Below are positions 1 to 39,749 of a stretch of DNA of 39,749 nucleotides, piece by piece. The stretch lies in IMG/VR virus record IMGVR_UViG_2541047827_000012; one strand, 5' to 3'. Each line of letters begins with the position of its first letter. Position 1 is the stretch's first letter. Below the pieces are notes generated by a model. That model did not search any database. It worked only from the letters and a program-made list of their open reading frames with translations, and had not been told where the DNA came from. Source of the stretch: a virus. Its lineage: Duplodnaviria; Heunggongvirae; Uroviricota; Caudoviricetes. Position numbers and translations under genes: made by a program.

Positions 1-516
1 ATGAAATTTAAAAAATGTCTTCTGCCTGTGGCAACGTTAGCGTCATTCACTCTGGCAGGATGCCAGTCAAATGCTGATGATCATGCCGCCGATGTTTATC
101 AAACCGATCAACTGAATACCAAACAAGAAACTAAAACCGTTAATATTATTTCCATTCTTCCCGCAAAAGTTGCCGTAGACAACTCCCAAAATAAACGAAA
201 CGCACAAGCCTTCGGCGCGCTTATTGGTGCAGTCGCTGGCGGTGTTATTGGCCACAACGTCGGGTCTGGCAGCAATTCCGGAACGACGGCAGGTGCAGTT
301 GGCGGCGGAGCTGTTGGCGCGGCAGCGGGTTCTATGGTGAATGATAAAACCTTAGTGGAAGGTGTTTCTTTAACGTATAAGGAAGGCACCAAAGTGTATA
401 CCTCCACCCAGGTGGGTAAAGAGTGCCAGTTTACGACAGGTTTAGCCGTTGTTATTACCACGACGTATAACGAAACGCGTATTCAGCCAAATACGAAATG
501 TCCTGAAAAGAGCTAA
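1..516 (+). CDS. Lipoprotein with glycine-zipper domain (SlyB/Pcp-like), probably host
   Basis: ATG at 1; signal peptide ending in lipobox LAGC; Gly/Ala-rich GAVAGGVIGHNVGSG...GAVGGGAVGAAAG glycine-zipper stretch; stop 514-516. Confidence 0.6.
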   Translation: MKFKKCLLPVATLASFTLAGCQSNADDHAADVYQTDQLNTKQETKTVNIISILPAKVAVDNSQNKRNAQAFGALIGAVAGGVIGHNVGSGSNSGTTAGAVGGGAVGAAAGSMVNDKTLVEGVSLTYKEGTKVYTSTQVGKECQFTTGLAVVITTTYNETRIQPNTKCPEKS

Positions 517-531
517 TGATCAGGAGGAGTC

Positions 532-1071
532 ATGAAGAAAGTTTTTCTTTGCGCCATCTTAGCCTCCTTAAGCTATCCGGCTATCGCCTCATCATTGCAG
601 GATCAACTCTCTGCTGTCGCAGAAGCGGAACAGCAAGGTAAAAATGAAGAGCAAAGGCAGCATGACGAATGGATCGCGGAGCGCAACAGGGAAATCCAGC
701 AAGAGAAGCAACGTCGCGCAAACGCCCAGGCCGCCGCTAACAAAAGAGCGGCAACGGCAGCGGCAAATAAGAAAGCTCGTCAGGATAAACTGGATGCCGA
801 AGCCACTGCGGACAAAAAACGCGATCAAAGTTATGAAGATGAGCTACGCAGCTTAGAGATTCAGAAACAAAAACTGGCGCTGGCGAAAGAAGAAGCCCGC
901 GTTAAGCGCGAAAACGAATTTATCGATCAGGAACTGAAGCACAAAGCTGCGCAAACCGATGTGGTGCAATCTGAAGCTGACGCAAACAGGAATATGACTG
1001 AGGGCGGTCGCGATCTGATGAAAAGCGTGGGCAAAGCAGAAGAGAACAAATCGGACAGCTGGTTTAACTAA
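532..1071 (+). CDS. Secreted Lys/Glu/Ala/Gln-rich coiled-coil protein, function unknown, probably host
   Basis: Strong SD (caggaggag) before ATG 532; N-terminal Sec signal MKKVFLCAILASLSYPAIAS; low-complexity charged helical body. Confidence 0.5.
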   Translation: MKKVFLCAILASLSYPAIASSLQDQLSAVAEAEQQGKNEEQRQHDEWIAERNREIQQEKQRRANAQAAANKRAATAAANKKARQDKLDAEATADKKRDQSYEDELRSLEIQKQKLALAKEEARVKRENEFIDQELKHKAAQTDVVQSEADANRNMTEGGRDLMKSVGKAEENKSDSWFN

Positions 1072-1118
1072 GCGATGTCAGTAACTTCAAGCCTATGATT
1101 CGTGAGTATAATAAATAT

Positions 1119-1142
1119 CCTCCGGCATAGCCGGAGGTTTTT
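1119..1142 (+). terminator. Rho-independent terminator after the host gene
   Basis: 8-bp GC-rich stem CCTCCGGC/GCCGGAGG with 3-nt loop, followed by TTTTT. Confidence 0.6.
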
Positions 1143-1151
1143 CAAATGCGC

Positions 1152-1858
1152 CTATAAGGCTCTCTTACCAGCCGCGCCCTAACAGGCGCACACGATCTGA
1201 CATTTGCATCCAACTTCGTTACTTACGGCCCGTAAACGGGCTGCCCGGATAGGGAATCGATAACTGCTCTCCCATTTTATCCTCTTCAAGCTGGTGCTTT
1301 ATGTAATCCTGTATCTTCGCCGTGTTCTTACCCACTGTATCGACGTAGTACCCTCTGCACCAGAACTCCCTGTTCCTGTATTTGAATTTCAAATCACCAA
1401 ACTGCTCGTAAAGCATCAGACTGCTTTTCCCTTTCAGATATCCCATAAACCCGGATACGCTCATTTTAGGCGGGATCTCCACAAGCATATGGATATGATC
1501 TGCACAGCATTCAGCTTCCAGAATCCGTACGCTTTTCCACTCACACAGCTTTCTCAAAATACTGCCTATTGCTCTACGCTTCTCTCTGTAGAACACCTGT
1601 CTTCGGTATTTTGGCGCAAAAACTATGTGATATTTACAGTTCCATCGGGTGTGCGCTAAGCTCTTTTCGTTCCCCATTGGGACCCCCTTTTGATTTCTTG
1701 TTTGACACTTGCAGTTGCCAGACCGCAAGGTGTTTTAACAAATCAAAAGGGGTTTTAATAACTGGCTCAAAGCTGAAAGCTTTCCGGAACCCCCAGCCTA
1801 GCTGGGGGTTTTCTGTGCACAAAAAACCCTCTGTAGTAACAGAGGGTTTTGTTCATTC
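1152..1858 (-). mobile_element. IS200 insertion sequence (IS200/IS605 family), ends approximate
   Basis: Contains the IS200 TnpA gene; upstream of tnpA are the two hairpins expected at the IS200 left end (CCCCCAGC/GCTGGGGG at 1790-1808 and A-run/CCCTCTGT-agta-ACAGAGGG/T-run at 1821-1850). About 707 bp fits IS200; exact ends not determined. Confidence 0.7.
1219..1677 (-). CDS. tnpA: IS200 transposase TnpA (Y1 HUH transposase), 152 aa
   Basis: Translation MGNEKSLAHTRWNCKYHIVFAPKYRR...HIHMLVEIPPK...GYYVDTVGKNTAKIQDYIKHQLEEDKMGEQLSIPYPGSPFTGRK matches IS200 TnpA as I recall it; the HxH and catalytic Tyr regions are present; start chosen at the internal ATG (1677) with SD AGGGGG, not the track start at 1728. 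Confidence 0.9.
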   Translation of the reverse strand: MGNEKSLAHTRWNCKYHIVFAPKYRRQVFYREKRRAIGSILRKLCEWKSVRILEAECCADHIHMLVEIPPKMSVSGFMGYLKGKSSLMLYEQFGDLKFKYRNREFWCRGYYVDTVGKNTAKIQDYIKHQLEEDKMGEQLSIPYPGSPFTGRK

Positions 1859-1999
1859 ATAGTGCAGGGTCAAATCATTCCCACTCAATTATTTACGATA
1901 ACCATAACCAATTGAGTGATAACATTTTTCCAAATCTCAATTTTTATCGTACCGTTTTATATACCGTCACCGGAAATCAGTACCATGAAAAATGCCATG

Positions 2000-3806: not shown

Positions 3807-3999
3807 CGTTTATATGCATAACAACCTCCTGAACAGTAAAGCATTACGCATAATAAACCATTTATGGTTTTTTGTTACTTTAACATCGTCAATTCCCTGT
3901 TTTTCATGCCGAGAATAAAGCTCACCTTTTACATGACTCTGAAGAAACAAACAGTGAAGAGCAGGTTGAATACCGCACCATTTAATGGCGCGGTAGCAG

Positions 4000-4296
4000 T
4001 CAAATAGAGAAATAAACACAAAAACAAAAAACAACAGGAACAGCAAAATCCAACAGACTTCCCACATCCCACACGCGTGGATCAAAACCTCCCCACCACG
4101 GCATGTTGATACGTTTCCCTTTCCCAAACTTTTCTATCCAGCGATATTCTGCCTGGGTGTGTTCACGCGCAATGAAGAACGTACAACCGGCTATCGCACC
4201 GTAAGCCCAGTTTCCGGTAAAAATACCAACCAGTACCTGAGCCACAAAAGCGCAAAGCGAGTGAAGAAATGGAGTGACATCAATGCTCTTAATCAT
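4000..4296 (-). CDS. Small membrane protein of unknown function, translationally coupled to the tailspike
   Basis: 98 aa with two hydrophobic segments; start overlaps the tailspike stop; AT-rich. Confidence 0.45.
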   Translation of the reverse strand: MIKSIDVTPFLHSLCAFVAQVLVGIFTGNWAYGAIAGCTFFIAREHTQAEYRWIEKFGKGKRINMPWWGGFDPRVWDVGSLLDFAVPVVFCFCVYFSI

Positions 4297-6482
4297 GAAA
4301 CTTCCCCATTGGTTGAAAATATGGCTCCTCCAACGCCAAGTGTATTTCGTGTTGTGCTCAACCTCAGAGGGCTGGAGTCAGAATTAGAATATCCTGTAGC
4401 AGAAATAAAAGATCCTCCACTAATAGTCAACTGCGGAACATCGGCTATATCTGAATAAGTTCTGTCAGCAACAGTATTATTTATAGCCACATATGATCCA
4501 AAAAAACTTCTTATTGTTTGGTTTTTAACTTTACTTCCTTCAATGGTTATCCTACTACCACAGTCGGCAATAAATCCTGAATCTGCATCCAGCGTTGCAT
4601 TCATAAAAGAAGCTTCAGATCTCTCTACATCAATCCATCTAATATCTTTTGTGGGATTTGCACCAAATACATGACAAATATTAGAGTTAAACCTTACACC
4701 ATCTTGGAGGTGCATTAATTTTTTTATATCTGTACCCCATAGCCTTGGAAAATTAACAGATGCTCCTGCATGGCAATCAAATCCCAGCTCAGCCCCTGAG
4801 ATATCTACAGCCTTTCCTGAAATAACAGCACCAGTGTCTGCATTAACGGCTGTTCCACAATTGCGCATATCATTACCAGCAACATCAACGCAACCCGCAC
4901 CATCAATACGCACACCAAGTGCACATCCATAAAAACCTTTTTCAATATTTGGTTCAAGGACTTTACCACTTGTTTCTGCATCACTTTCTTCAACGTCATG
5001 TCGTCTTGCATCAACATATGCTGTATGAATGCAGGTTAATCCACGATATGAGCAATGTATAGTTTTATGGTCGCGTATATTAACATTTGAACCATCTCTT
5101 ACATTCCATCCTATATAACAATAGCTTGCACTTGACCCCTGAAAATCTGCTTTAACATTATAAATACAATTAACTGACGCAACCGTACTCTCTGTGCACC
5201 GTTCAAACTTGCTTACAGGCATTGATGCCTTGACATTATTTACCAGTTGCAGGGAAGAGTATCTGCTATAAGAAAAATCACATACGTAATACCCTTCTGG
5301 CATATATGCAGCAACACTTTCCTCATCAGGAGCACATCCGGTATGATATGCACTAATTTTTGCACCAAAACTACCATGAATTCCAACGTAGAACTTTCGA
5401 GCACCTGAATACGGATAGAAATTAAGTTCAGCTTTTTGAGTTACAATAAATGCACAAACATCGCTATCATCTCTATTTTCTTCGATCTGAATAGCAAATA
5501 CAGGACTTTTTGCTGCATCGCAAATGTAAAATAAATACTTGTATTCGTAATACGTTCTAACGATTTTAGTAAACAAACGAGTGTCAGAGAAAACCACTGA
5601 GTCTTCTGATGTTATTTTAATCCAAGACAAATCAACACCTGAACTGAATTCAATTTGATAGTTGATAATATGCCCGGTCTTAATTCTTATTTCGCAGAAA
5701 GCATTACCACCATCCCACATAGGTCTCATTGACTGGGCTGCAATGATTGCATCTTTGAGTGTAGGGTAATCACCCCATTCGCCAACAGTAATAACAAAAG
5801 TATAATATGAGTTAAAAACAGCGGCATTTTTGCCTTTGGATATCAACTCCTTAATCATAAAAATATTATCTTCGTAATCACAAGGAGAAATTATATCCCT
5901 CATTTTGCTTTGAAATGTTCGTTGTCTTGCCCCGCTTCCTGACGGTATAAACCAACCAAAACCACCAACAACCCCGGCGATTGCAGCATCGACATAATTA
6001 CGCATTGAGCGATTATTTACAGCGTCCTGCTCAAATGATGGATCTGCAAGGTTAGAAATTTTGTTTTGCTTTGCATCGTAATATTTTGCAAGCAAAGATG
6101 GTTTCATCAATGCACGTCTGAACCACCCAAAACATCGCTGGATCAGCATCGTCAGGTAGTCAAATGCATCTTCATGAACTTCGGGGAAAAATTTTCCCTG
6201 ATTGCGAAGATCAGTCTCCTGCACCACATCAAGCACACGCTCTATCGTAATTCGCCAGCCAGCAGCAAGCGGCGACGGGAGAACCACTTCACCGCCACTA
6301 TAAGTGCCCGCTCCAGTTACCTTATAACCGGTATCCAGAACCAATTCTGTTACGTTCCCGTTCAGGTCAGACACCTGAACAACCAGGTCGGTTTTTTTGA
6401 AAATACGGAAGGTATACGGAAATGATGTCGTAACGCCGTTACCGGTGTATTCGTTGTGGTCAACTTCGGTTGAGACCGTCAT
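4293..6482 (-). CDS. Tailspike/tail fiber: conserved T7 gp17-like N-terminal domain plus divergent C-terminal receptor-binding domain
   Basis: 729 aa; N-terminus MTVSTEVDHNEYTGNGVTTSFPYTFRIFK...DTGYKVTG follows the tail-fiber N-terminal adaptor pattern; C-terminal 500 aa is AT-rich with Gly/Ser/Asn/Cys-rich repeats typical of beta-helix receptor-binding domains. Confidence 0.8.
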   Translation of the reverse strand: MTVSTEVDHNEYTGNGVTTSFPYTFRIFKKTDLVVQVSDLNGNVTELVLDTGYKVTGAGTYSGGEVVLPSPLAAGWRITIERVLDVVQETDLRNQGKFFPEVHEDAFDYLTMLIQRCFGWFRRALMKPSLLAKYYDAKQNKISNLADPSFEQDAVNNRSMRNYVDAAIAGVVGGFGWFIPSGSGARQRTFQSKMRDIISPCDYEDNIFMIKELISKGKNAAVFNSYYTFVITVGEWGDYPTLKDAIIAAQSMRPMWDGGNAFCEIRIKTGHIINYQIEFSSGVDLSWIKITSEDSVVFSDTRLFTKIVRTYYEYKYLFYICDAAKSPVFAIQIEENRDDSDVCAFIVTQKAELNFYPYSGARKFYVGIHGSFGAKISAYHTGCAPDEESVAAYMPEGYYVCDFSYSRYSSLQLVNNVKASMPVSKFERCTESTVASVNCIYNVKADFQGSSASYCYIGWNVRDGSNVNIRDHKTIHCSYRGLTCIHTAYVDARRHDVEESDAETSGKVLEPNIEKGFYGCALGVRIDGAGCVDVAGNDMRNCGTAVNADTGAVISGKAVDISGAELGFDCHAGASVNFPRLWGTDIKKLMHLQDGVRFNSNICHVFGANPTKDIRWIDVERSEASFMNATLDADSGFIADCGSRITIEGSKVKNQTIRSFFGSYVAINNTVADRTYSDIADVPQLTISGGSFISATGYSNSDSSPLRLSTTRNTLGVGGAIFSTNGEVS

Positions 6483-6981: not shown

Positions 6982-7248
6982 ATTTACATCGCACTCCTCT
7001 TGTGCCATAGTAATCGGGCACTGGCAAAATCCAGTGCCGGGATTGGCGTCCCGAGTTACTACAGAGGCACATATGCCGCATAAGCGGTTTTTTTTATGTG
7101 TAAAGCGCACCTATTCTATGGTGGGCTGTGTGGGGGCACCGAAAGGTGCGCCGGGTCCTTTGTAGCCGGTTACGCCAACCCTGCACAGTTCACCACCAAC
7201 CGATTGGCGTCGGTAGTGGTGATTAACCTAACTACAAAGGTGATCACT

Positions 7249-7935
7249 ATGACTGCTAACGTAACCCCATCTGTTTTTCATTTTGAATCAGAAGCAACCA
7301 TTCGAGCCATTGTTATTGATGGAAATCCTTGGTTTGTTGCCAAAGACGTTATTAAAGCTCTTCAACTGACAAACCCCACTATGTCAATAAAATCTCTTGA
7401 TGATGATGAAAGGGCTAAATTTAACTTAGGCCGTCAAGGCGAAACCAATATTATCAACGAGTCAGGCCTCTACACACTGATCCTCCGCTGCCGCGATGCA
7501 GTAACACCAGGCACTATCCCCTACCGCTTTCGCAAATGGGTTACAGGTGAGGTTCTTCCTCAGATCCGCCGCACCGGAAGTTACATTAAAAACTCGCTCC
7601 CGCAGGAAGAACGCATAAAGATGGTTGCCGACCAGGTTGCAAACGCCACAGCATCAGCAGTGATGCAGGCAATGAAGATAGAGAACAAAACCTACAGCGC
7701 CCCACTGAAGCCCGGCTACCGCAGCCTGATTCATTCGCCGTCTGGTGTTCTCGGCCTGACGGAGAACTCACTGCTGATGAATTTGCTGAACCAGTTACAG
7801 GAAGACGGGCATGACGTATCGGGCGCGGCGGCGGAGCTGACTACCATGTTCTGCTACATCGTCGGTGTGAGCAAATGCCTGCGTGATATCCAGACGCACG
7901 CGGAGTACATCAACGACAAGGCAGGGTTCTTCTGA
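7249..7935 (+). CDS. Antirepressor (Bro-N domain plus KilA-C-like C-terminal domain)
   Basis: SD AAAGGTGA before ATG 7249; Bro-N pattern FHFESEATIRAIVIDGNPWFVAKDVIKALQL...ESGLYTLILRCRDAVTPGTIPYRFRKWVTGEVLPQIRRTGSYI. Confidence 0.8.
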   Translation: MTANVTPSVFHFESEATIRAIVIDGNPWFVAKDVIKALQLTNPTMSIKSLDDDERAKFNLGRQGETNIINESGLYTLILRCRDAVTPGTIPYRFRKWVTGEVLPQIRRTGSYIKNSLPQEERIKMVADQVANATASAVMQAMKIENKTYSAPLKPGYRSLIHSPSGVLGLTENSLLMNLLNQLQEDGHDVSGAAAELTTMFCYIVGVSKCLRDIQTHAEYINDKAGFF

Positions 7936-8008: not shown

Positions 8009-8023
8009 TTACCTTAAAGGTAA
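8009..8023. promoter_or_regulatory. Operator-like palindrome TTACCTTAAAGGTAA overlapping a putative promoter
   Basis: Perfect TTACC-N5-GGTAA; putative -35 TTGCAG (7981-7986) and -10 TACTAT (8004-8009) with 17-bp spacing put the site over the -10 and start of the 8050 operon. Confidence 0.55.
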
Positions 8024-8049: not shown

Positions 8050-8259
8050 ATGGGATTTTGGTTCGCTCGTACAAAAACGAGGGATAATGCACCCAGCCCT
8101 CAGGCAAAAAATGCAGAAGTTCCGGCGTCAGCGCAGGTTAACAAGCGTGGTGGTGTGTATATCTCATCACAGCAAATTTCTGAGCTTCCTGAGGTTAAGG
8201 AGATGCGTCGTCTCGCTGCTGCAATCGTTAAACAGGATCTTGCCACTGTAAGGAAATAG
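8050..8259 (+). CDS. Hypothetical 69-aa protein, first gene of accessory operon
   Basis: Strong SD GAGGAGGAG 6 nt before ATG 8050; stop overlaps start of the next gene. Confidence 0.5.
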   Translation: MGFWFARTKTRDNAPSPQAKNAEVPASAQVNKRGGVYISSQQISELPEVKEMRRLAAAIVKQDLATVRK

Positions 8260-9125
8260 TGTTGTTAGCTCTTCTAATTATCCCCATTCTGGTTAGTGGT
8301 TATATTATGATAACCGCTAACCAGTATCATTATTTCCGTTTATACCGACATGAAGGCCAGCTTCTTTATATGAAAGTAGCTGCATTAGGTACATATTGCC
8401 TTGTTGCTTCGGTAATAATTGCCGCATTTATAAAATATAAATATCCTGATTTTCACCTAGTTCACGATATGGTGGAAACTTTTAATGTAACGTCAAAACC
8501 AGAAACAGATAGAATTTACATGTGGCTGCTTCTTCTCTCAGCCACATCCATTTGCTTCTCTTTGTGTTATGTGTCTGTTGTGTGGGTGAAAGATTTTCTT
8601 CTTGGTTGTTTTTATAAACGTGATATTTATGAGCAAAAAACAGAGGCAATGAAGGCCAGAGTACTGCGAAAAACTTACTCGCAAGGTTCTTTAGACTTAC
8701 TATTGCTTGATGCTATTGAATCGGATCCTAAACGACCAATGCTGATTACTTTATCATCAAACAAAGTGTATGTTGGAATAATAAATGGTTCTGGTGAACC
8801 AACGGAAAATCAGGGTCCGCATCAGCACATATCTTTTGTTCCTTTAATGTCAGGATACAGGAACAAAGACAACTTATCTGTCACATTCACTAATGCTTAT
8901 CCAGGAGAAATACAGGTCAAGCGGACTGCAGCAATAAGAGGAATTAGCAGAAAGAAAGTGCCAGGACTTGAGATCATGGTGTCTATTGACGAAATAAGTT
9001 ATATATCATGGTTTGATTTTGAAGTATATAAAGCAACAAATAACAAAGTAGAATCCAGGGGGCACGTTATTCGTGTTACCAAAAATGGAAGAAATATATA
9101 TCAAAGAAATAGCAAAAAAGAATAG
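8259..9125 (+). CDS. Membrane-anchored protein of unknown function (N-terminal TM helices plus 160-aa soluble domain)
   Basis: GTG start at 8259 overlapping upstream stop (SD AGGA 8251-8254); about 3 hydrophobic helices in the first 110 aa; markedly AT-rich versus flanking phage DNA; followed by a terminator. Confidence 0.6.
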   Translation: MLLALLIIPILVSGYIMITANQYHYFRLYRHEGQLLYMKVAALGTYCLVASVIIAAFIKYKYPDFHLVHDMVETFNVTSKPETDRIYMWLLLLSATSICFSLCYVSVVWVKDFLLGCFYKRDIYEQKTEAMKARVLRKTYSQGSLDLLLLDAIESDPKRPMLITLSSNKVYVGIINGSGEPTENQGPHQHISFVPLMSGYRNKDNLSVTFTNAYPGEIQVKRTAAIRGISRKKVPGLEIMVSIDEISYISWFDFEVYKATNNKVESRGHVIRVTKNGRNIYQRNSKKE

Positions 9126-26308: not shown

Positions 26309-26385
26309 GTGGCATTAGCTCAGTTGGACAGAGCAACCGCCTTCTAAGCGGTTGGTCGCAGGTTCGAATCCTGCATGCCACGCCA
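26309..26385 (+). tRNA. tRNA-Arg (anticodon TCT, reads AGA)
   Basis: Cloverleaf folded by hand: acceptor GTGGCAT/ATGCCAC, D-arm GCTC-AGTTGGACA-GAGC, anticodon stem ACCGC/GCGGT with loop CTTCTAA, T-arm GCAGG-TTCGAAT-CCTGC, discriminator G plus CCA. Confidence 0.9.
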
Positions 26386-29203: not shown

Positions 29204-29541
29204 ACTATTAATTTCGTTTCATGCCAGCCTTTAGTCACCCAGCATTGCGAGTCACCATTGCACGGGCATGAATTAACTGGAACTCTCTCGCCGCACTTAC
29301 CGCAACGTTTTCTGCTGATCGATTTTATACGCCCGCGCACGCGTGCATCATCCTGGCGGATCAGTAACGCTATATACTCACCAAATTCGTAAGGTGCACG
29401 CCCGGGGCGACGCGTGGCACAGTTACGCTCCAGCATTTCAATTTCCTGAGCATCAAGCACAATCTCCAGCTTACGCACACCAGATGCAGCTTGTCTGGCT
29501 CTCTGAGCGGCTTTGCGCTCTGCTGCTGATTTAGCCATCAA
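29200..29541 (-). CDS. Small Arg-rich protein with C-terminal Cys cluster (putative zinc-finger regulator)
   Basis: 113 aa; C-terminus CGKCGERVPVNSCPCNGDSQC (C-x2-C...C-x-C); last gene before the late-operon terminator. Confidence 0.5.
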   Translation of the reverse strand: MMAKSAAERKAAQRARQAASGVRKLEIVLDAQEIEMLERNCATRRPGRAPYEFGEYIALLIRQDDARVRGRIKSISRKRCGKCGERVPVNSCPCNGDSQCWVTKGWHETKLIV

Positions 29542-29818
29542 TATTCACCTTTATCGCGAACACCTTTACCGGTTTATCACCGAAGTGCGGATGTGTGATT
29601 GTCTTGATTTCATACCCTTCATACGGGACGTCAATTCTTCGACTGAAGTCGTCGCGCTTCGGATATCCCTTTGTGATAATCAGGAGGTCATACTCCCTGA
29701 ACATAATTCGCTTATTCCAGTAGTCATTACACAGGCGATACTCCTCGGTTTTCTCTCCGCGCTTCATCGCGTCAAAGTATTCGCCATTAACGGCCAACTG
29801 TAGATCAGCCACCTGCAA
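29531..29818 (-). CDS. ASCH/DUF3850-like small phage protein
   Basis: Pattern VNGEYFDAMKRGEKTEEYRL...YDLLIITKGYP resembles the DUF3850/ASCH fold family by recollection. Confidence 0.45.
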   Translation of the reverse strand: MQVADLQLAVNGEYFDAMKRGEKTEEYRLCNDYWNKRIMFREYDLLIITKGYPKRDDFSRRIDVPYEGYEIKTITHPHFGDKPVKVFAIKVNIDG

Positions 29819-34029: not shown

Positions 34030-34614
34030 ATGAAAAGTATCCAGGACGTCCGCAGGCAAAATCTCAACGACTTGATCGACCGTGAATTCAATGGTGTTCA
34101 GACGCGGATGGCAGAAAAACTTGGAACTCAGGCAAATCTGGTAAACCGCTGGGCTCTTGGCAAGAAGGTTATCGGCGACCAGGTTGCACGAAAAATTGAA
34201 GCTGCCGCCAATAAACCCCGTAACTGGCTTGATATTGATCGCTCGCTTTCTCAGGAGGGTTTTCAGCCTGTCGGCCCGAGCGATATAGGTCAGCTGGCGG
34301 CTCACAACCTGGAACGCTGGATGAGCGAAAGCCGCGACCTTTCAACGCAGGGAAAACTACACCGCGCATCCGGCGTCGCCCAGGTGACAATCAGCCGCCT
34401 GTTAAACAATGAGGTCAGCGTTTCCATTTCCACCCTGGAGAATGTTGCATCCGCATTCGGGCGTCACGGCTATGAATTACTGATTCACCCGCACGACCCT
34501 GCGACCATCAACTATGATCGCTCGCGCTACGCATTGTTACCCGAAACCGAGAAAGCAAAGATCGAAAGTTACATTGAATTTGTCATCAACCAGAACGAAA
34601 AAAACAAACAATAA
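34030..34614 (+). CDS. Prophage repressor, double-HTH, no S24 peptidase domain (CI-like position)
   Basis: 194 aa with two HTH-like segments; no Ala-Gly cleavage site or Ser/Lys peptidase motifs seen; flanked by operator clusters; followed by a terminator. Confidence 0.65.
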   Translation: MKSIQDVRRQNLNDLIDREFNGVQTRMAEKLGTQANLVNRWALGKKVIGDQVARKIEAAANKPRNWLDIDRSLSQEGFQPVGPSDIGQLAAHNLERWMSESRDLSTQGKLHRASGVAQVTISRLLNNEVSVSISTLENVASAFGRHGYELLIHPHDPATINYDRSRYALLPETEKAKIESYIEFVINQNEKNKQ

Positions 34615-34636
34615 AATCATATTTTTCAGTAAGTAA

Positions 34637-34658
34637 GCCGCCAGAAGGCGGCTTTTTT
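34637..34658 (+). terminator. Rho-independent terminator after the repressor gene
   Basis: GCCGCC-agaa-GGCGGC hairpin followed by TTTTTT. Confidence 0.7.
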
Positions 34659-34686: not shown

Positions 34687-34733
34687 TTTTTTTAACTCAT
34701 ATCTATTGACATCAAACCAGATACGCATAATTA

Positions 34734-34748
34734 TTACCTCAACGGTAA
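34734..34748. promoter_or_regulatory. Operator-like palindrome TTACCTCAACGGTAA overlapping the early rightward promoter (OL-like, proximal)
   Basis: Perfect TTACC-N5-GGTAA just downstream of TTGACA-N17 and followed by a GGTAAC half-site within the RBS of the first early ORF. Confidence 0.55.
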
Positions 34749-34922: not shown

Positions 34923-35222
34923 ATGAACGTTAATCAGCAGAAAAATCTTCAAAAAATCATGCTGGCATTCGACAAGGACTACCGCCTGTCAGAACAGCTA
35001 TATGACCGACAAGTTGAACTGATTGAGAGTATCCGGCTTCATCAACTGACCTCAACTTTCGACGTTGTAACAGGCAAAGGCGTTCGTCAGGAAGTGCTGG
35101 AGGCTGCTAAAGACAGCCCTGAGTTCGAAGAACTGATGGATGCCTACCGGCGCGAGGCAATGGCAATTATCGCCCGCTGGGATCTGGCGGATCAGCTTGA
35201 TGGACAGAGGGACGCGGCATGA
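34923..35222 (+). CDS. Hypothetical early protein (99 aa)
   Basis: Start set at ATG 34923 with SD GGAGG; ATGA overlap with the exonuclease gene. Confidence 0.5.
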   Translation: MNVNQQKNLQKIMLAFDKDYRLSEQLYDRQVELIESIRLHQLTSTFDVVTGKGVRQEVLEAAKDSPEFEELMDAYRREAMAIIARWDLADQLDGQRDAA

Positions 35223-36040
35223 ATCCGGGAATTTATTTCGATATCAGCAACGAAGACTACCACGCCGGTGACGGCGTGAGTAAGTCGCAACTGGACATGG
35301 TTGCCAAGAATCCGGCGCTTCTTAAATGGGTTCAGGCAGCACCAGAAGACGAAGAGAAAAAGTCTGCACTGGATATGGGAACCGCATTGCACTGTCTGCT
35401 TCTGGAGCCTGGAGAGTTCGACAAACGCTTCATTGTTTCACCGAAATTCGATCGTCGGACGAAACAAGGTAAAGCTGACGAAGAGGCATTTCTTCGTGAT
35501 GTGGCGGATATGGGGATTACGGTACTTGATGCCGAGCAGTGGCGGAAACTGGAGTTGATGCGTGATAGCGCAATGGCTCATCCGGCGGCACGCTGGATGC
35601 TGGAAGCACCTGGTTACTGCGAAGCATCAATGTACTGGAACGATGAAGAGACGGGTGAGTTGTGCCGAATTCGTCCAGACAAATGGCTAAACGAGCACAA
35701 CGTGATCGTCGACGTGAAAAAGGTTGCAGATATGGACCGTTTTGCACGCCACATCGAGGAATTCCGCTACCACGTGCAGGACGCAATGTACCGCGAAGGC
35801 GCAATGAGGGTTACTGGTCAGCCACATGGTTTTTTCTTTCTTGCCGTGAGCGAAAGCATTGATTGTGGTCGGTATCCGGTACGCGTGTTCGGGCTGGATG
35901 CGCCAGATGTCGATGCCGGGCACGCTCTGTTCCGCCGGGATCTGAATACCTATCACGAATGCCGCATCAACGATGAATGGGGCGGCGTGGAAATTATTAA
36001 ACGCCCTGAGTGGGCACGCAAACAGGATATGTACGTATGA
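35219..36040 (+). CDS. RecE-like exonuclease (exodeoxyribonuclease VIII-like PD-(D/E)XK nuclease)
   Basis: 273 aa; directly upstream of and overlapping RecT; acidic/Lys catalytic-looking core (...VIVDVKKV...). Confidence 0.65.
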   Translation: MNPGIYFDISNEDYHAGDGVSKSQLDMVAKNPALLKWVQAAPEDEEKKSALDMGTALHCLLLEPGEFDKRFIVSPKFDRRTKQGKADEEAFLRDVADMGITVLDAEQWRKLELMRDSAMAHPAARWMLEAPGYCEASMYWNDEETGELCRIRPDKWLNEHNVIVDVKKVADMDRFARHIEEFRYHVQDAMYREGAMRVTGQPHGFFFLAVSESIDCGRYPVRVFGLDAPDVDAGHALFRRDLNTYHECRINDEWGGVEIIKRPEWARKQDMYV

Positions 36041-36954
36041 GCAACGAAATTGCAATCACCAATGATGTGTTGGCTATTCGGGGAATCGATGAAGTTACAT
36101 GGAGCGCTCTGAAAAACAGTATTTACCCTGGGGCAAAAGATGAATCGGTAATGATGGCAGTCGATTACTGCCGGGCGCGTCAACTCGATCCTCTTCTTAA
36201 GCCGGTACACCTGGTACCAATGAGTGTTAAAGACTCGAAGAGTGGAAAGAATGAATGGCGCGACGTGGTCATGCCTGGCATTGGACTTTATCGCATTCAG
36301 GCCTACCGTTCCGGCGATTACGCAGGCGCTAATGAACCTGAGTTCGGTCCAGATGTAACACAAACGCTTTCAGGCGTGGAGGTTACCTTCCCTCAGTGGT
36401 GTAAGTACACCGTCAGCAAGCGAATGGCAAGCGGGGAAATCGTAGAGTTTAGCGCCAAAGAATACTGGATTGAGAACTATGCAACTGGGGGGCGTGACAC
36501 ATCGGCACCAAATGCCATGTGGAAAAAGCGCCCTTATGCGCAGTTGGCAAAATGCGCAGAGGCACAGGCATTACGTAAAGCATGGCCGGAGATTGGTCAA
36601 CAAGCCACAGCTGAGGAAATGGAAGGTAAATATATCGACTCACCTGACATTATTGAACGTGACGTAACTCCAAGAAGTCAGGCAAAGCACGGCACAGCAT
36701 CCAGCATGAACAGTCTGATCAACGCTAAAACAGTGAAAAAGCCTGATGAGCAAACGCGTAAAGCGGATAGCCGTGATCCAGAAGAAATGCTGATGGCCTT
36801 TACCAGCGCAGCGATGAATTACAGCACTGTCTCCGAACTGGATAAGGCTTACAAATACATTGCACAAAAACTTTCAGATGATGACGAACTGCTGGCAAAA
36901 GCCACCGACGTTTACAGCGTTCGTCGGGAAGAATTAAACGAAACATCTATGTAA
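36037..36954 (+). CDS. recT: RecT-family single-strand annealing protein
   Basis: Start set at ATG 36037 (ATGA overlap with the exonuclease stop); conserved RecT-like central region; paired with the RecE-like nuclease. Confidence 0.75.
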   Translation: MSNEIAITNDVLAIRGIDEVTWSALKNSIYPGAKDESVMMAVDYCRARQLDPLLKPVHLVPMSVKDSKSGKNEWRDVVMPGIGLYRIQAYRSGDYAGANEPEFGPDVTQTLSGVEVTFPQWCKYTVSKRMASGEIVEFSAKEYWIENYATGGRDTSAPNAMWKKRPYAQLAKCAEAQALRKAWPEIGQQATAEEMEGKYIDSPDIIERDVTPRSQAKHGTASSMNSLINAKTVKKPDEQTRKADSRDPEEMLMAFTSAAMNYSTVSELDKAYKYIAQKLSDDDELLAKATDVYSVRREELNETSM

Positions 36955-37003
36955 CCACCACCGCGGCGCCACGCGCGCCGCACTGCAACCAAGAGAGGTA
37001 TTT

Positions 37004-37252
37004 ATGAAAGGTGCATTAGGTAAGAAGGAACTCCTGGCGGTGGTGCCACTGTCATGGAGCACTATCGACCGTATGGAGCGCGCAGGGGAATTTCCTAAAC
37101 GCTGGTATATCACCGATAAACGCTGCGCATGGAACCGTGATGAAGTTGAGCGTTGGCTTGATGAACGTCAGGCAGCAAGCCCGGCAGAGTTCCAGGGTAA
37201 AAAGCCTCCTGTTCAGCAACGTGTATATCGTCCCGTGAGCAACGCTGCATGA
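37004..37252 (+). CDS. AlpA/Xis-like HTH protein (putative excisionase or regulator)
   Basis: 82 aa; ...LAVVPLSWSTIDRMERAGEFPKRWYITDKRCAWNRDEVERWLDE... fits the AlpA-family winged-helix pattern usually associated with P4-type integrases. Confidence 0.65.
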   Translation: MKGALGKKELLAVVPLSWSTIDRMERAGEFPKRWYITDKRCAWNRDEVERWLDERQAASPAEFQGKKPPVQQRVYRPVSNAA

Positions 37253-37412
37253 GTGCGCTGCTAAGGCACTGGAGCAAATGGTCAGGATGGTACTTATTCC
37301 TGGCCTCTGTTTCAGCATGGCTTTATCTGCTGGCATTAATTTTCAGAGAGGGTTGGATTAAGTGAGAAAGTTAAGCCGACTTGAAAAATATCACATGAAT
37401 AAGGTTTCAATG

Positions 37413-37661
37413 CGCAGTCCGTCAAAGATTGTCGCCGTTACTCCTGCGGCGATAGAGATCGAAAAACGCGCGATTGAAAGAGAGAAAAAAGGGCAATTCC
37501 GCATTGCCGCTCACCTTTGGCTTCAGTGTATGGATGTTGCTTCTGGTGATGTTGAACGTGCAAGGATCGCGGTTCGCAGGGACCAATGTATCACAAAAGG
37601 TAACGGCCTTCGCCGTGGCGACTATAGCGGCATAGGATGTTGTGGGGTGGTTTATGACTAA
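37413..37661 (+). CDS. Hypothetical protein (about 82 aa)
   Basis: Start set at ATG 37413 (SD AAGG); the frame is open back to 37362 (GTG) and 37395 (ATG), both without RBS. Confidence 0.4.
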   Translation, partial: RSPSKIVAVTPAAIEIEKRAIEREKKGQFRIAAHLWLQCMDVASGDVERARIAVRRDQCITKGNGLRRGDYSGIGCCGVVYD

Positions 37662-38304
37662 GAAATACACACTAATCTATGCAGATCCACCCTGGGTATA
37701 CCGGGACAAAGCCGCAGATGGTAATCGCGGTGCCGGTTTTAAATATCCGGTTATGAGTGTGCTGGATATCTGCCGCCTTCCTGTATGGGATTTGGCCGAT
37801 GAAAACTGTCTGTTGGCCATGTGGTGGGTGCCAACACAACCACTCGAAGCACTAAAAGTTGTTGAAGCCTGGGGATTCCGTCTGATGACGATGAAGGGCT
37901 TCACGTGGATAAAATGTGGTAGTCGACAACCAGATAAACTGGTTATGGGTATGGGACACATGACTCGCGCCAATAGTGAAGATTGCCTGTTTGCGGTAAA
38001 GGGAAAACTACCTCCGCGCATTAATGCAGGGATCGTTCAGTCATTTACCGCACCGCGGCTTGAGCACTCAAGAAAACCAGATGTCGTTCGTGAAAAACTT
38101 GTGCAATTGTTAGGCGATGTTTCTCGCATTGAACTGTTCGCCCGCCAGTCGTCTCATGGCTTCGATGTTTGGGGTAATCAGTGTGAAGACCCGGCAGTGC
38201 AACTACACCCTGGATACGCGTTGGATATTGCCAGATTAACAAATGCATTCAGCAATGCTCCGCTGTCACCAACAGACAACCAGGGGCGGGAGCGTGCAGC
38301 ATGA
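37654..38304 (+). CDS. MT-A70 family DNA N6-adenine methyltransferase (orphan)
   Basis: Catalytic DPPW motif in MTKKYTLIYADPPWVY; start set at ATG 37654; no adjacent restriction endonuclease. Confidence 0.8.
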   Translation: MTKKYTLIYADPPWVYRDKAADGNRGAGFKYPVMSVLDICRLPVWDLADENCLLAMWWVPTQPLEALKVVEAWGFRLMTMKGFTWIKCGSRQPDKLVMGMGHMTRANSEDCLFAVKGKLPPRINAGIVQSFTAPRLEHSRKPDVVREKLVQLLGDVSRIELFARQSSHGFDVWGNQCEDPAVQLHPGYALDIARLTNAFSNAPLSPTDNQGRERAA

Positions 38305-38495
38305 ACCGGGCATCACCAGCAGATTTAAGGAAATGCCTTGAAACTGCAAACATGCTTGCACACAGCGGGATCAGGTTTGTTCCAATTCCCGCTGTCACCG
38401 ATGCTGAATTTGCAATGCTGTCAGCAATATTCGCAGACAAAATTGAATCACTGGCAGCAGAAGCCGAGATGGAAGAAAATCAGCAGAACTATTAA
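38301..38495 (+). CDS. Hypothetical small acidic protein (64 aa)
   Basis: ATGA overlap with the methyltransferase stop. Confidence 0.45.
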   Translation: MNRASPADLRKCLETANMLAHSGIRFVPIPAVTDAEFAMLSAIFADKIESLAAEAEMEENQQNY

Positions 38496-38498
38496 ACG

Positions 38499-39749
38499 TT
38501 ATTCCCCCGCCATCCACTTCTCAAACTTCGACGGGGAGAACGGAATCAGATCCGTATGCTCCCCGTTAATCCAGGAATCAATCATATCGGCCCACTGCTG
38601 CAACATGTAGGCGCGCTGTCTGGCGTATTCCGCTTTGTTATATACGGCGCGCACACCTTTCTGCTCATGTGCCAGAGCCTTTTCAATCCAGTCTGAAGGA
38701 TAACCAGCCTCATGCAACAACGTACTGGCTGTACGGCGCATATCGTGTACGGTGAAGTCCTGAATATGCTCACCATCTTCATTTATTATTTTCACCGTTC
38801 TGTCGATCAGAGAGTTCAGCGCGGCATTAGATAATGGCTTCCGGAAATTGTAACGACCAGGAACCAGATATTCACTTCCACCAGCGCACATCTGCAACCC
38901 GACCAATATATCCTGTGCCTGTTTAGGCAGGTAAATAACGTGCGCCCGGCTTCCCTTCATGCGGTCTGAAGGAATTGTCCATGTCCATTTTTTAAAATCT
39001 ATTTCATCCCACGTTGCATTGGTGAATTCGCCTTTACGAACCATAGTGATAAGCACCAGCTTTAAAGCCATTTTCATAGTGCCCATAGCACCAATGGCAT
39101 CCAGCGTGCGGAAGAACAGGCCAATTTCTTCTGGTGTCAGTGTTCGCTCTCGTGGTTTAAATATGGCGATAGACGAAGGTTTAATGTCAGCCGCAGGATT
39201 AAACAAACCATGACCACGGTCATTGGCGTGACGGTATACGCTGCTGATGATCTCCCTGGCCTGTACTGCTGTTGCCCGACCACCGCGTTCGACAATCCGG
39301 TCACACAAATCACGAACCATCGATGTGGTAATTTCAGCCATCATTTTGTTGCCAAGAACCGGAAGTATGTCACGGTCGATCACCGCCTGCTTCATTGCGC
39401 GGGTACTGTCAGCCAAGATGACGTGTTTCATATAACTGTCGGTATGTACCGCAAACGTCTCGGCACCACGAATCTTTTTGATACCGTCACGTTTAGCCGC
39501 AGCCGGCGACTGGCCTGCTTTAAGCAGCTTCTTTGCAGCAATCAGTTCTTCTCGCGCTTCTGCCAGGCTGATACCGTCACGCCCATACTGCCCGATTACC
39601 AATGTTTCGCGGCGACCGTTGATACGGTAGTCATAGCGAAACGAGACCGTGCCTGACGTAAGCACAGCTACATACAGCCCGTCACGATCGGAGACCTTGT
39701 ACAGTTTGTCCTGCGGCTTGAGGTTTTTTAATTTTGTATCGGTAAGCAC
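38499..39749 (-). CDS. int: Tyrosine integrase, P4-like; N-terminus at or just beyond the window edge
   Basis: N-terminal LTDTKLKNLKP arm-binding motif; C-terminal catalytic residues (HDMRRT...AHE...VRAVYNKAEY); the ORF is open to the last base, so the first codon(s) may lie outside. Confidence 0.85.
   Translation of the reverse strand: MLTDTKLKNLKPQDKLYKVSDRDGLYVAVLTSGTVSFRYDYRINGRRETLVIGQYGRDGISLAEAREELIAAKKLLKAGQSPAAAKRDGIKKIRGAETFAVHTDSYMKHVILADSTRAMKQAVIDRDILPVLGNKMMAEITTSMVRDLCDRIVERGGRATAVQAREIISSVYRHANDRGHGLFNPAADIKPSSIAIFKPRERTLTPEEIGLFFRTLDAIGAMGTMKMALKLVLITMVRKGEFTNATWDEIDFKKWTWTIPSDRMKGSRAHVIYLPKQAQDILVGLQMCAGGSEYLVPGRYNFRKPLSNAALNSLIDRTVKIINEDGEHIQDFTVHDMRRTASTLLHEAGYPSDWIEKALAHEQKGVRAVYNKAEYARQRAYMLQQWADMIDSWINGEHTDLIPFSPSKFEKWMAGE

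Follow-up and report, generated by a model that had tools for sequence, protein, structure and literature searches.

A putative orphan MT-A70 family N6-adenine methyltransferase encoded in the left-hand operon of a phiV10-like Escherichia coli prophage

Protection from host restriction is the function conventionally assumed for phage methyltransferases. The Dam-type phage enzymes (T4 Dam, P1 Dam and VT2-Sa Dam, the last of which is listed as GATC-specific) are orphan N6-adenine methyltransferases for which anti-restriction, packaging or regulatory roles have been proposed. M.EcoGII and M.EcoGI are typical N6_N4 methylases. These two enzymes, encoded by prophages of E. coli O104:H4, are likewise orphan, beta-class adenine methyltransferases that are non-specific and presumed to protect phage DNA (PMC5778455). 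M.EcoGII also exemplifies prophage methyltransferases that are silent in lysogens and promiscuous when expressed (PMC5778455), a behaviour taken up in the discussion of PMC4659465 as well. Within the MT-A70 family, the eukaryotic writers (METTL3-METTL14; MTA1-MTA9 plus p1/p2) require a dead MT-A70 partner and accessory DNA- or RNA-binding subunits, and carry extra domains. A bacterial DNA m6A subfamily was reportedly noted by Bujnicki et al. in 2002. For characterised phage or bacterial MT-A70 enzymes, the literature searched yielded eukaryotic work and reviews only, and it contained neither a characterised close homolog of the protein described here nor a measured specificity for one. As M.EcoGII and M.EcoGIX are of another type, this agrees with the initial annotation of the gene, according to which its target cannot be inferred from sequence.

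We analysed a window of 39,749 nucleotides that carries a phiV10-like (Uetakevirus; epsilon15-like temperate podovirus) prophage within an E. coli chromosome. Apart from a few replaced segments, the whole window is collinear with Escherichia phage phiV10, and between positions 37000 and 39749 it is 98.6% identical to phiV10 at the DNA level, with comparable identity to phage ZX5, to the O157 typing phages 9 and 10, and to others. The DNA match to epsilon15 is limited to the integrase. Positions 1-1071 correspond to the E. coli chromosomal genes yfgH and yfgI and are followed by a copy of IS200C, and in a sister prophage the integrase abuts guaA; the window thus consists of an integrated prophage plus a short piece of host DNA at the left end.

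The gene of interest (Table 1) is an intact plus-strand ORF of 216 codons running from the ATG at 37654 to the TGA at 38304. Starting instead at the in-frame GTG (37642) would lengthen the protein by four residues; the ATG is preferred because it is in agreement with RefSeq and with the N-termini of homologs (MTKKY, MNKKY or MKKY), and it is the start used in phiV10. In a profile search the protein matches Pfam MT-A70 (PF05063) with an E-value of 7.2e-22 and a score of 78.6 bits, above the curated gathering score of 23.9 bits, and the alignment places profile positions 1-172 of 172 on residues 5-176 (i.e. the whole domain). As the match is full-length, the DPPW sequence is not a mere chance tetrapeptide. 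Further matches are to the profile phrog_359 ‘DNA methyltransferase’ (E 2.9e-120) and to the PADLOC Type II MTase model PDLC03262 (E 5e-77). No NCBIfam model matched the protein, and scans with Rfam and for tRNAs found none within or overlapping the gene. Minus-strand ORFs within the gene (e.g. 37677-38021) were rejected as mechanical artefacts, as it is the plus frame that has the full-length family match. The ORF encodes an MT-A70 (Ime4-like, circularly permuted beta-class) family protein with intact catalytic and cofactor motifs, and it belongs to the bacterial and phage branch of the MT-A70/Ime4 clade. The initial annotation had placed an MT-A70 adenine methyltransferase with a DPPW motif here; its coordinates prove exact, and Pfam, structure prediction and Foldseek concur on the family.

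The phrog_359 profile has an N-terminal extension of 117 positions relative to the methyltransferase, which was considered as a hint of a lost domain. The long database variants that were inspected are rare in-frame PerC-MTase fusions or carry C-terminal extensions, some with a CxxC...C tail. The PerC-MTase fusions amount to 2-3 sequences from read assemblies and are probably deletions or errors.

Conservation was assessed across 31 aligned homologs with identities as low as 60%, and 49 of the alignment columns are invariant. Of the residues of DPPW, a form of the catalytic motif IV [DNSH]PP[YFW], P12 and W14 never vary, and D11 and P13 are retained in at least 90% of the homologs. The C-terminal block is marked by the invariant residues S139, K141, P142, R146, R158, E160, F162, W173, G174 and N175, and from established knowledge of METTL3 we take the HSRKPD...WGNQ block to bind SAM. 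Other conserved blocks read MWW, EAWGF, TW.K, GMGHMTRANSEDCLFA, PR..HS.KP, RIELFAR and WGNQ. With DPPW in the N-terminal and the cofactor block in the C-terminal part, the motif order is circularly permuted, and both blocks align with those of the ciliate enzyme MTA1. The conserved core extends over about residues 1-180, whereas the tail (residues 181-216) is hypervariable in sequence and in length. In the central region, where beta-class enzymes have a target-recognition domain, the protein has a loop of ∼20 residues; in the homolog P0074 this loop region is enlarged by 24 inserted residues. Pairwise dN/dS is about 0.06 against the Stx-phage homolog, a comparison in which dS is saturated, and 0.15-0.30 in comparisons with near-identical copies. 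Purifying selection on the gene is strong and, judged from these sequence comparisons, its product is presumably a maintained, active enzyme.

A Rossmann-like MT-A70 fold is predicted for the 216-residue protein by an AF2 model built from the alignment (mean pLDDT 75.6, pTM 0.77), which is of moderate confidence. The parts of low confidence are the loops 18-29 and 97-105, which presumably lie at the positions of the flexible gate loops of METTL3, together with the tail. When the model is compared with the PDB by Foldseek, the best matches are METTL3 catalytic domains (E about 4e-14, TM 0.65-0.71, probability 1.00), and MTA1 is matched as well (TM 0.59-0.64, probability 1.00). By sequence (HMMER), the closest solved proteins are ciliate MTA1 (PDB 7f4r/7yi8) with E-values of about 1e-12 to 1e-13 (best 3.5e-13), whereas METTL3 is matched with an E-value of about 4e-6. 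The DPPW and HSxKP...ELFAR blocks line up in the HMMER alignment with MTA1, where the second block reads ‘sqkpe...lEiFAR’. By counting from the gap-free start of this alignment, D11 corresponds to Asp209 of MTA1, the residue mutated in PDB 8xyx (‘D209A’).

The genes between 34908 and 38495 all lie on the plus strand and mostly overlap by 4-8 nt, in the order small ORF, DUF3799 RecE-like exonuclease, RecT, AlpA, 38-codon ORF, PerC, methyltransferase and DUF1382. The end of the PerC gene overlaps the start of the methyltransferase gene by 8 nt (ATGACTAA), and the methyltransferase stop in turn overlaps the DUF1382 start codon (ATGA). The methyltransferase is the penultimate gene of this left-hand operon with its tight overlaps. 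The RecE-like/RecT pair is one fused ORF in the phiV10 annotation. The convergent integrase gene lies 195 bp downstream of the methyltransferase; the initial placement of the latter ‘next to the integrase’ is therefore right as to vicinity but not as to direct adjacency, because the DUF1382 gene (38301-38495) intervenes.

Expression of this operon would start from the candidate promoter that follows the repressor gene. The operator-like palindrome TTACC-N5-GGTAA (15 bp) found on either side of this promoter is also present in the divergent repressor/cro-like intergenic region (33912 and 33960). It occurs in 13 copies in the window, mostly at intergenic sites, against 0.65 expected, and none of 100 shuffles reached 13. 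On the plus strand, no terminator-like site was found between the candidate promoter and position 38495. This sequence pattern fits an early-left operon under repressor control. The gene had initially been assigned to an ‘early operon’, an assignment that is suggested by the candidate promoter, the palindromes, the gene overlaps and the lack of an intervening terminator-like site.

Table 1. Features of the left-hand operon and of the methyltransferase gene, with their positions in the window.
Feature	Position	Strand	Basis or remark
cI-like HTH repressor gene	34030..34614	+	Domain search; terminator-like hairpin 34635-34654 after it
Operator-like palindrome TTACC-N5-GGTAA	34672..34686		Upstream of -35 hexamer
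Candidate early-left promoter TTGACA-17-AATTAT	34706..34734	+	Sigma-70-like consensus match, 10/12
Second operator-like palindrome	34734..34748		From last base of -10 hexamer, over expected transcription start
RecE-like PD-(D/E)XK exonuclease, DUF3799	35219-36040	+	Domain search
RecT	36010-36954	+	Domain search
AlpA-family regulator	37004-37252	+	Domain search
38-codon ORF	37249-37365	+	phiV10 counterpart annotated as membrane protein
PerC-family gene, directly upstream of methyltransferase	37362..37661	+	PF06069, E 6e-7
MT-A70 family orphan N6-adenine methyltransferase gene (putative)	37654..38304	+	216 aa; Pfam, PHROG and PADLOC matches, conservation, predicted fold
Catalytic motif IV DPPW codons, aa 11-14	37684..37695	+	GAT CCA CCC TGG read from sequence
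C-terminal conserved block HSRKPD...IELFAR...WGNQ, aa 138-176	38065..38181	+	MT-A70 cofactor-binding region; 31-homolog alignment
DUF1382 gene, 64 codons, last of operon	38301..38495	+	PF07131, E 4e-30
P4-type tyrosine integrase, convergent with operon	38499..39749	-	Start codon is final base of window

The claim that the methyltransferase has no partner endonuclease is upheld at each level examined. The domains of the flanking genes are PerC, DUF1382, AlpA, RecT, RecE-like exonuclease and integrase, with no restriction endonuclease among them, and profile searches of the scanned window-specific ORFs against known families returned no nuclease, methyltransferase or PADLOC defence match. The remainder of the prophage is collinear with phiV10, the annotation of which contains no endonuclease. 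The only PD-(D/E)XK protein found is the RecE-like partner of RecT, and these two constitute a recombination pair and not a restriction enzyme. Searching all six-frame ORFs of at least 40 residues with a family HMM (--max) picked up the gene itself (E 5e-117) and nothing further of the MT-A70 family, the next match having an E-value of 1.5. The gene product is thus an orphan (solitary) methyltransferase, with no cognate endonuclease in the neighbourhood or in the element by profile search and phiV10 annotation; nor does it show the eukaryote-type obligate pairing with a catalytically degenerate MT-A70 subunit.

The gene itself is already known from phiV10, where it was annotated by similarity, and from ZX5, and it is ordinary and widespread. 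Its product is 97.7% identical in amino acids to PhiV10p33 (YP_512288.1) and 100% identical to the protein of phage vB_EcoP_ZX5. A copy at 95% DNA identity or higher is present in 538 of 5426 complete E. coli genomes (∼10%), where RefSeq labels it ‘MT-A70 family methyltransferase’. By tblastn, homologs were detected in 512 of 50,697 phage records, including 110 ‘Stx2a-converting’, 9 ‘Stx2-converting’ and 188 Vibrio phage records, and further in Klebsiella, Salmonella, Rhodobacter and Gordonia phages. A protein search gave 2248 clusters, mostly from Enterobacterales and with a typical length of 190-200 residues. Some databases call homologs ‘N6-adenosine-specific RNA methylase IME4’, which is an automatic COG-derived label.

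The surroundings of these homologs vary. Stx and Oslovirus phages show the gene order 143-residue ORF, MT-A70, DUF1382, DUF1627, two small genes, and then xis and int, and the 143-residue ORF has no similarity to PerC. P22-like nin regions have the MT-A70 homolog flanked by NinB and NinD. The homolog of Klebsiella prophages is preceded by a ParB-HTH gene and stands back to back with an oppositely oriented AAA_21/RloB (AbiL-like) pair, and in another type of E. coli prophage the gene comes after the lysis cassette, ∼2 kb upstream of ParB_N and ParB-methyltransferase genes. Sister phiV10-like prophages carry a Ser/Thr phosphatase gene in place of the downstream DUF1382. No endonuclease was found beside the MT-A70 homologs in at least four other phage contexts examined. 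Some Stx2a phages keep only a truncated remnant (tblastn matches over residues 94-187), which shows that the gene is dispensable. PerC and DUF1382, both of which overlap the gene, were considered as conserved functional partners and rejected, because Stx phages have an unrelated upstream ORF, because sister prophages swap DUF1382 for the phosphatase, and because the nin, Klebsiella and lysis-proximal homologs have neither gene. The gene behaves as a mobile single-gene accessory cassette without a fixed partner.

We consider it probable that the product is expressed early and acts alone as a SAM-dependent orphan N6-adenine DNA methyltransferase with a short or relaxed target, and that it shields phage DNA from restriction. 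The operon would be transcribed from the repressor-controlled promoter, such that the enzyme would be silent in the lysogen and produced, together with the recombination functions, early after induction or infection. It would then transfer methyl groups from SAM to the N6 of adenine in replicating phage (and host) DNA. The sequence requirement of this reaction may be short or relaxed, because the protein consists of a ∼180-residue catalytic core with a loop of ∼20 residues instead of a target-recognition domain. The active form may well be a homodimer, by analogy with the beta-class enzymes, which have been argued to act as dimers (PMC7544214). Progeny DNA methylated in advance would escape adenine-sensitive restriction in new hosts. 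The activity of a lone 216-residue protein is an assumption here, because every solved relative works as an obligate heterodimer with a dead paralogue.

With regulators (AlpA, PerC) and recombination genes as its neighbours, at a position equivalent to the lambdoid exo-xis region, the gene could also serve phage regulation by DNA methylation, be it by tuning how promoters or operators are occupied or by acting on the lysis-lysogeny decision, on recombination or on packaging. A passage of PMC3342100 cites a requirement for host Dam in the stable lysogeny of Stx phage 933W, and the 13 mostly intergenic 15-bp palindromes are putative protein-binding sites that methylation could modulate. The gene, however, turns up as a lone cassette at unrelated positions and in different phage types, with differing flanking genes, it is truncated in some Stx2a phages, and the epsilon15 DNA match covers the integrase only. 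As mobility, truncation and the epsilon15 pattern fit an accessory function better than a wired-in regulator, a regulatory role appears unlikely. A different substrate, i.e. RNA or single-stranded rather than duplex DNA, would make the enzyme an m6A writer on transcripts or on replication or recombination intermediates. Such a substrate would suit a protein that comes closest in structure to the mRNA methyltransferase domain of METTL3 and that is encoded shortly after a RecE-like/RecT pair, the products of which generate and anneal ssDNA; METTL3-METTL14 reportedly favours ssDNA over RNA, and M.EcoGII reportedly accepts both RNA and ssDNA (PMC7544214). The ‘RNA methylase IME4’ names of some homologs point the same way, though they are automatic and COG-derived. 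[quoted passage not shown] The protein moreover has no RNA-binding domain and the RecET linkage is not kept in other phages, and we regard RNA or ssDNA as the main substrate as highly improbable.

That the protein is inert alone, either as a relic or as a subunit in need of a partner (as METTL14 and MTA9 are, in the opposite sense), is in our view highly improbable too. In its favour, the MT-A70 enzymes with solved structures are all heterodimers, no DNA-binding domain can be recognised in the phage protein, and the genes on both sides overlap the methyltransferase as would suit co-translated partners. Yet the protein retains its DPPW motif and cofactor block, in contrast to inactive paralogues, in which, as in MTA9, the motifs have decayed (NALW; PMC7544214). 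The dN/dS of 0.06 points to a selected function, neither PerC nor DUF1382 accompanies the gene consistently in other contexts, and the window contains no second MT-A70 protein. All three alternatives are rendered less likely than a protective DNA methyltransferase by the nomadic distribution of the gene, its intact motifs and the better sequence match to MTA1 than to METTL3. A bolder form of the stand-alone enzyme, which we hold to be rather doubtful, is a naturally minimal MT-A70 protein that consists of the ∼180-residue catalytic core, lacks both a target-recognition domain and a dead paralogue as partner and, as a monomer or homodimer, methylates adenines almost regardless of sequence context, perhaps in ssDNA or RNA in addition to duplex DNA. 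Were this to be the case, the protein would represent a living model for the bacterial forebear of the eukaryotic writers METTL3 and MTA1, and would serve as a compact tool enzyme on a par with M.EcoGII.

As a discovery the gene is of little importance, being annotated by similarity in phiV10, labelled in RefSeq and present in ∼10% of complete E. coli genomes. The specificity of one member would, on the other hand, annotate thousands of genes in a very common enterobacterial phage clade, and the activity of a lone MT-A70 core would bear on the need for partner subunits of the eukaryotic type.

Among known systems, PhiV10p33 (‘DNA methyltransferase / putative adenine methylase’) and the ZX5 protein are the same gene in the same operon, with no difference of substance. 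The shared order is AlpA, small ORF, PerC, MTase, DUF1382 and convergent integrase, at 97.7-100% amino acid identity, and the present copy differs from phiV10 in being an integrated prophage with host yfgH/yfgI and an IS200C element. The ‘adenine methylase’ of Stx2a-converting and related phages (TL-2011c; Ss-VASD, AU154_gp07; Stx2 phage 86, orf39) is 82-83% identical over the core and shares the adjoining DUF1382, the early-left region and a position a few genes from xis/int. It differs in its unrelated upstream gene, in its C-terminal tail and in its host phage, which is of lambdoid siphovirus or podovirus type and not a Uetakevirus. With ciliate MTA1/AMT1 and human METTL3 (PDB 7f4r, 7yi8, 8xyl and 5il1) the phage protein has the Pfam family, the permuted motif order and the fold in common, and by analogy it should perform the same chemistry, i.e. 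SAM-dependent N6-methylation of adenine. At 20-26% identity to these multisubunit writers, it is a single polypeptide of 216 residues with no paralogue in the element. The Dam-type phage enzymes are of the alpha class, with the opposite motif order and GATC specificity, and have no sequence relationship to the phage MT-A70 protein. Kinship to M.EcoGII/M.EcoGI or M.EcoGIX, well-known and characterised enzymes from E. coli mobile elements that would have supplied a specificity, was considered and rejected, as these are DPPY beta-class enzymes and the papers that describe them never mention MT-A70. M.EcoGII and M.EcoGI still provide the best functional analogy, though from another family, from which the phage protein is set apart by the published description of M.EcoGII: the latter has 349 residues, a DPPY motif and a central target-recognition domain (PMC5778455), whereas the phage protein has 216 residues, a DPPW motif and no such domain.

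The palindrome TTACC-N5-GGTAA occurs 13 times in the window when up to one mismatch is allowed (15 nt per site), against an expectation of 0.65, and none of 100 shuffled sequences reached this count. Judged by position, the majority of the copies appear intergenic, and they are found in the immunity region, on both flanks of the candidate early-left promoter, 5′ of the Bro-N gene and 5′ of ORF 8259-9125. TTACC-N5-GGTAA is probably the repressor operator, in which case many scattered promoters would be under the control of a single repressor.

Several segments depart from the related phage phiV10. In the window, a RecE-like PD-(D/E)XK exonuclease and RecT (35219-36954) are encoded by two overlapping ORFs, likewise in a RefSeq sister prophage, whereas in phiV10 they are annotated as one 586-aa fusion; the interval 36063-36705, in the middle of RecT, has no DNA match to phiV10. 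Window 3870-6482, the tailspike region, exhibits no DNA match to the tail fiber/O-acetyltransferase interval of phiV10, which points to a difference in O-antigen specificity between the two. ORF 8259-9125, which is window-specific, gave neither a Pfam nor a PADLOC match. The tRNA-Arg(TCT) gene falls in an interval collinear with phiV10 2563-2924. At the left edge, window 1-1872 is non-phage DNA, with an IS200C copy placed between the host genes yfgH/yfgI and the prophage lysis cassette.

The start of the MT-A70 methyltransferase gene is overlapped by 8 nt by a gene for a PerC-family activator (37362-37661). Prophage-borne PerC homologs are known activators of virulence genes in EPEC and EHEC. 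In-frame PerC-MT-A70 fusions are rare database variants (the homologs P0003 and P0004; 2-3 sequences, from read assemblies) and are probably the products of small deletions or errors. Some homologs, of 264-274 aa (P0048 and P0118), are extended at the C-terminus, and the extension ends in CPRCG...C, a motif resembling a zinc ribbon. Specificity for a substrate or a partner might lie in the hypervariable tail that follows the catalytic core. In the Klebsiella prophage loci L018-L022, an 84% identical homolog lies back-to-back with an AAA_21 ATPase and RloB pair, which is AbiL-like and likely a prophage-borne defence module. A predicted ASCH-domain protein, so labelled from the phiV10 p54 annotation, and a putative m6A writer are present in one phage; ASCH is among the PUA-like folds, which are proposed binders of modified nucleic acids.

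Coordinates of features in the window and, where stated, in a Klebsiella prophage locus
Feature	Position	Remarks
yfgH	1-516	glycine-zipper lipoprotein, E. coli chromosomal gene
yfgI	532-1071	DUF5384, E. coli chromosomal gene
IS200C tnpA	1219-1728	- strand
STnc490 RNA	1687-1810	within IS200C copy
Tailspike-region ORF	4293-6482	729 aa; no Pfam match
isrK	7018-7094	Rfam match, at start of Bro-N domain gene
Bro-N domain gene	7096-7935	
C4 antisense RNA	7114-7200	Rfam match, at start of Bro-N domain gene
ORF 8259-9125	8259-9125	288 aa; in segment 7937-9356; operator-like palindrome copy ahead at 8009
tRNA-Arg(TCT)	26309-26385	inside prophage, near terminase genes
phiV10 p54 counterpart	29531-29818	- strand; ASCH-domain protein per phiV10 annotation
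TTACC-N5-GGTAA, copies 1-7	6587, 6967, 8009, 25972, 29081, 29099, 31591	15 nt each
TTACC-N5-GGTAA, copies 8-13	31653, 33575, 33912, 33960, 34672, 34734	15 nt each
AAA_21 ATPase and RloB pair region	about 4656-6415	in L018

The arrangement of isrK, C4 RNA and the Bro-N gene is found here in an epsilon15-like prophage, and its predicted elements resemble the P1/P7-style immI module, in which an antirepressor is controlled by antisense RNA.
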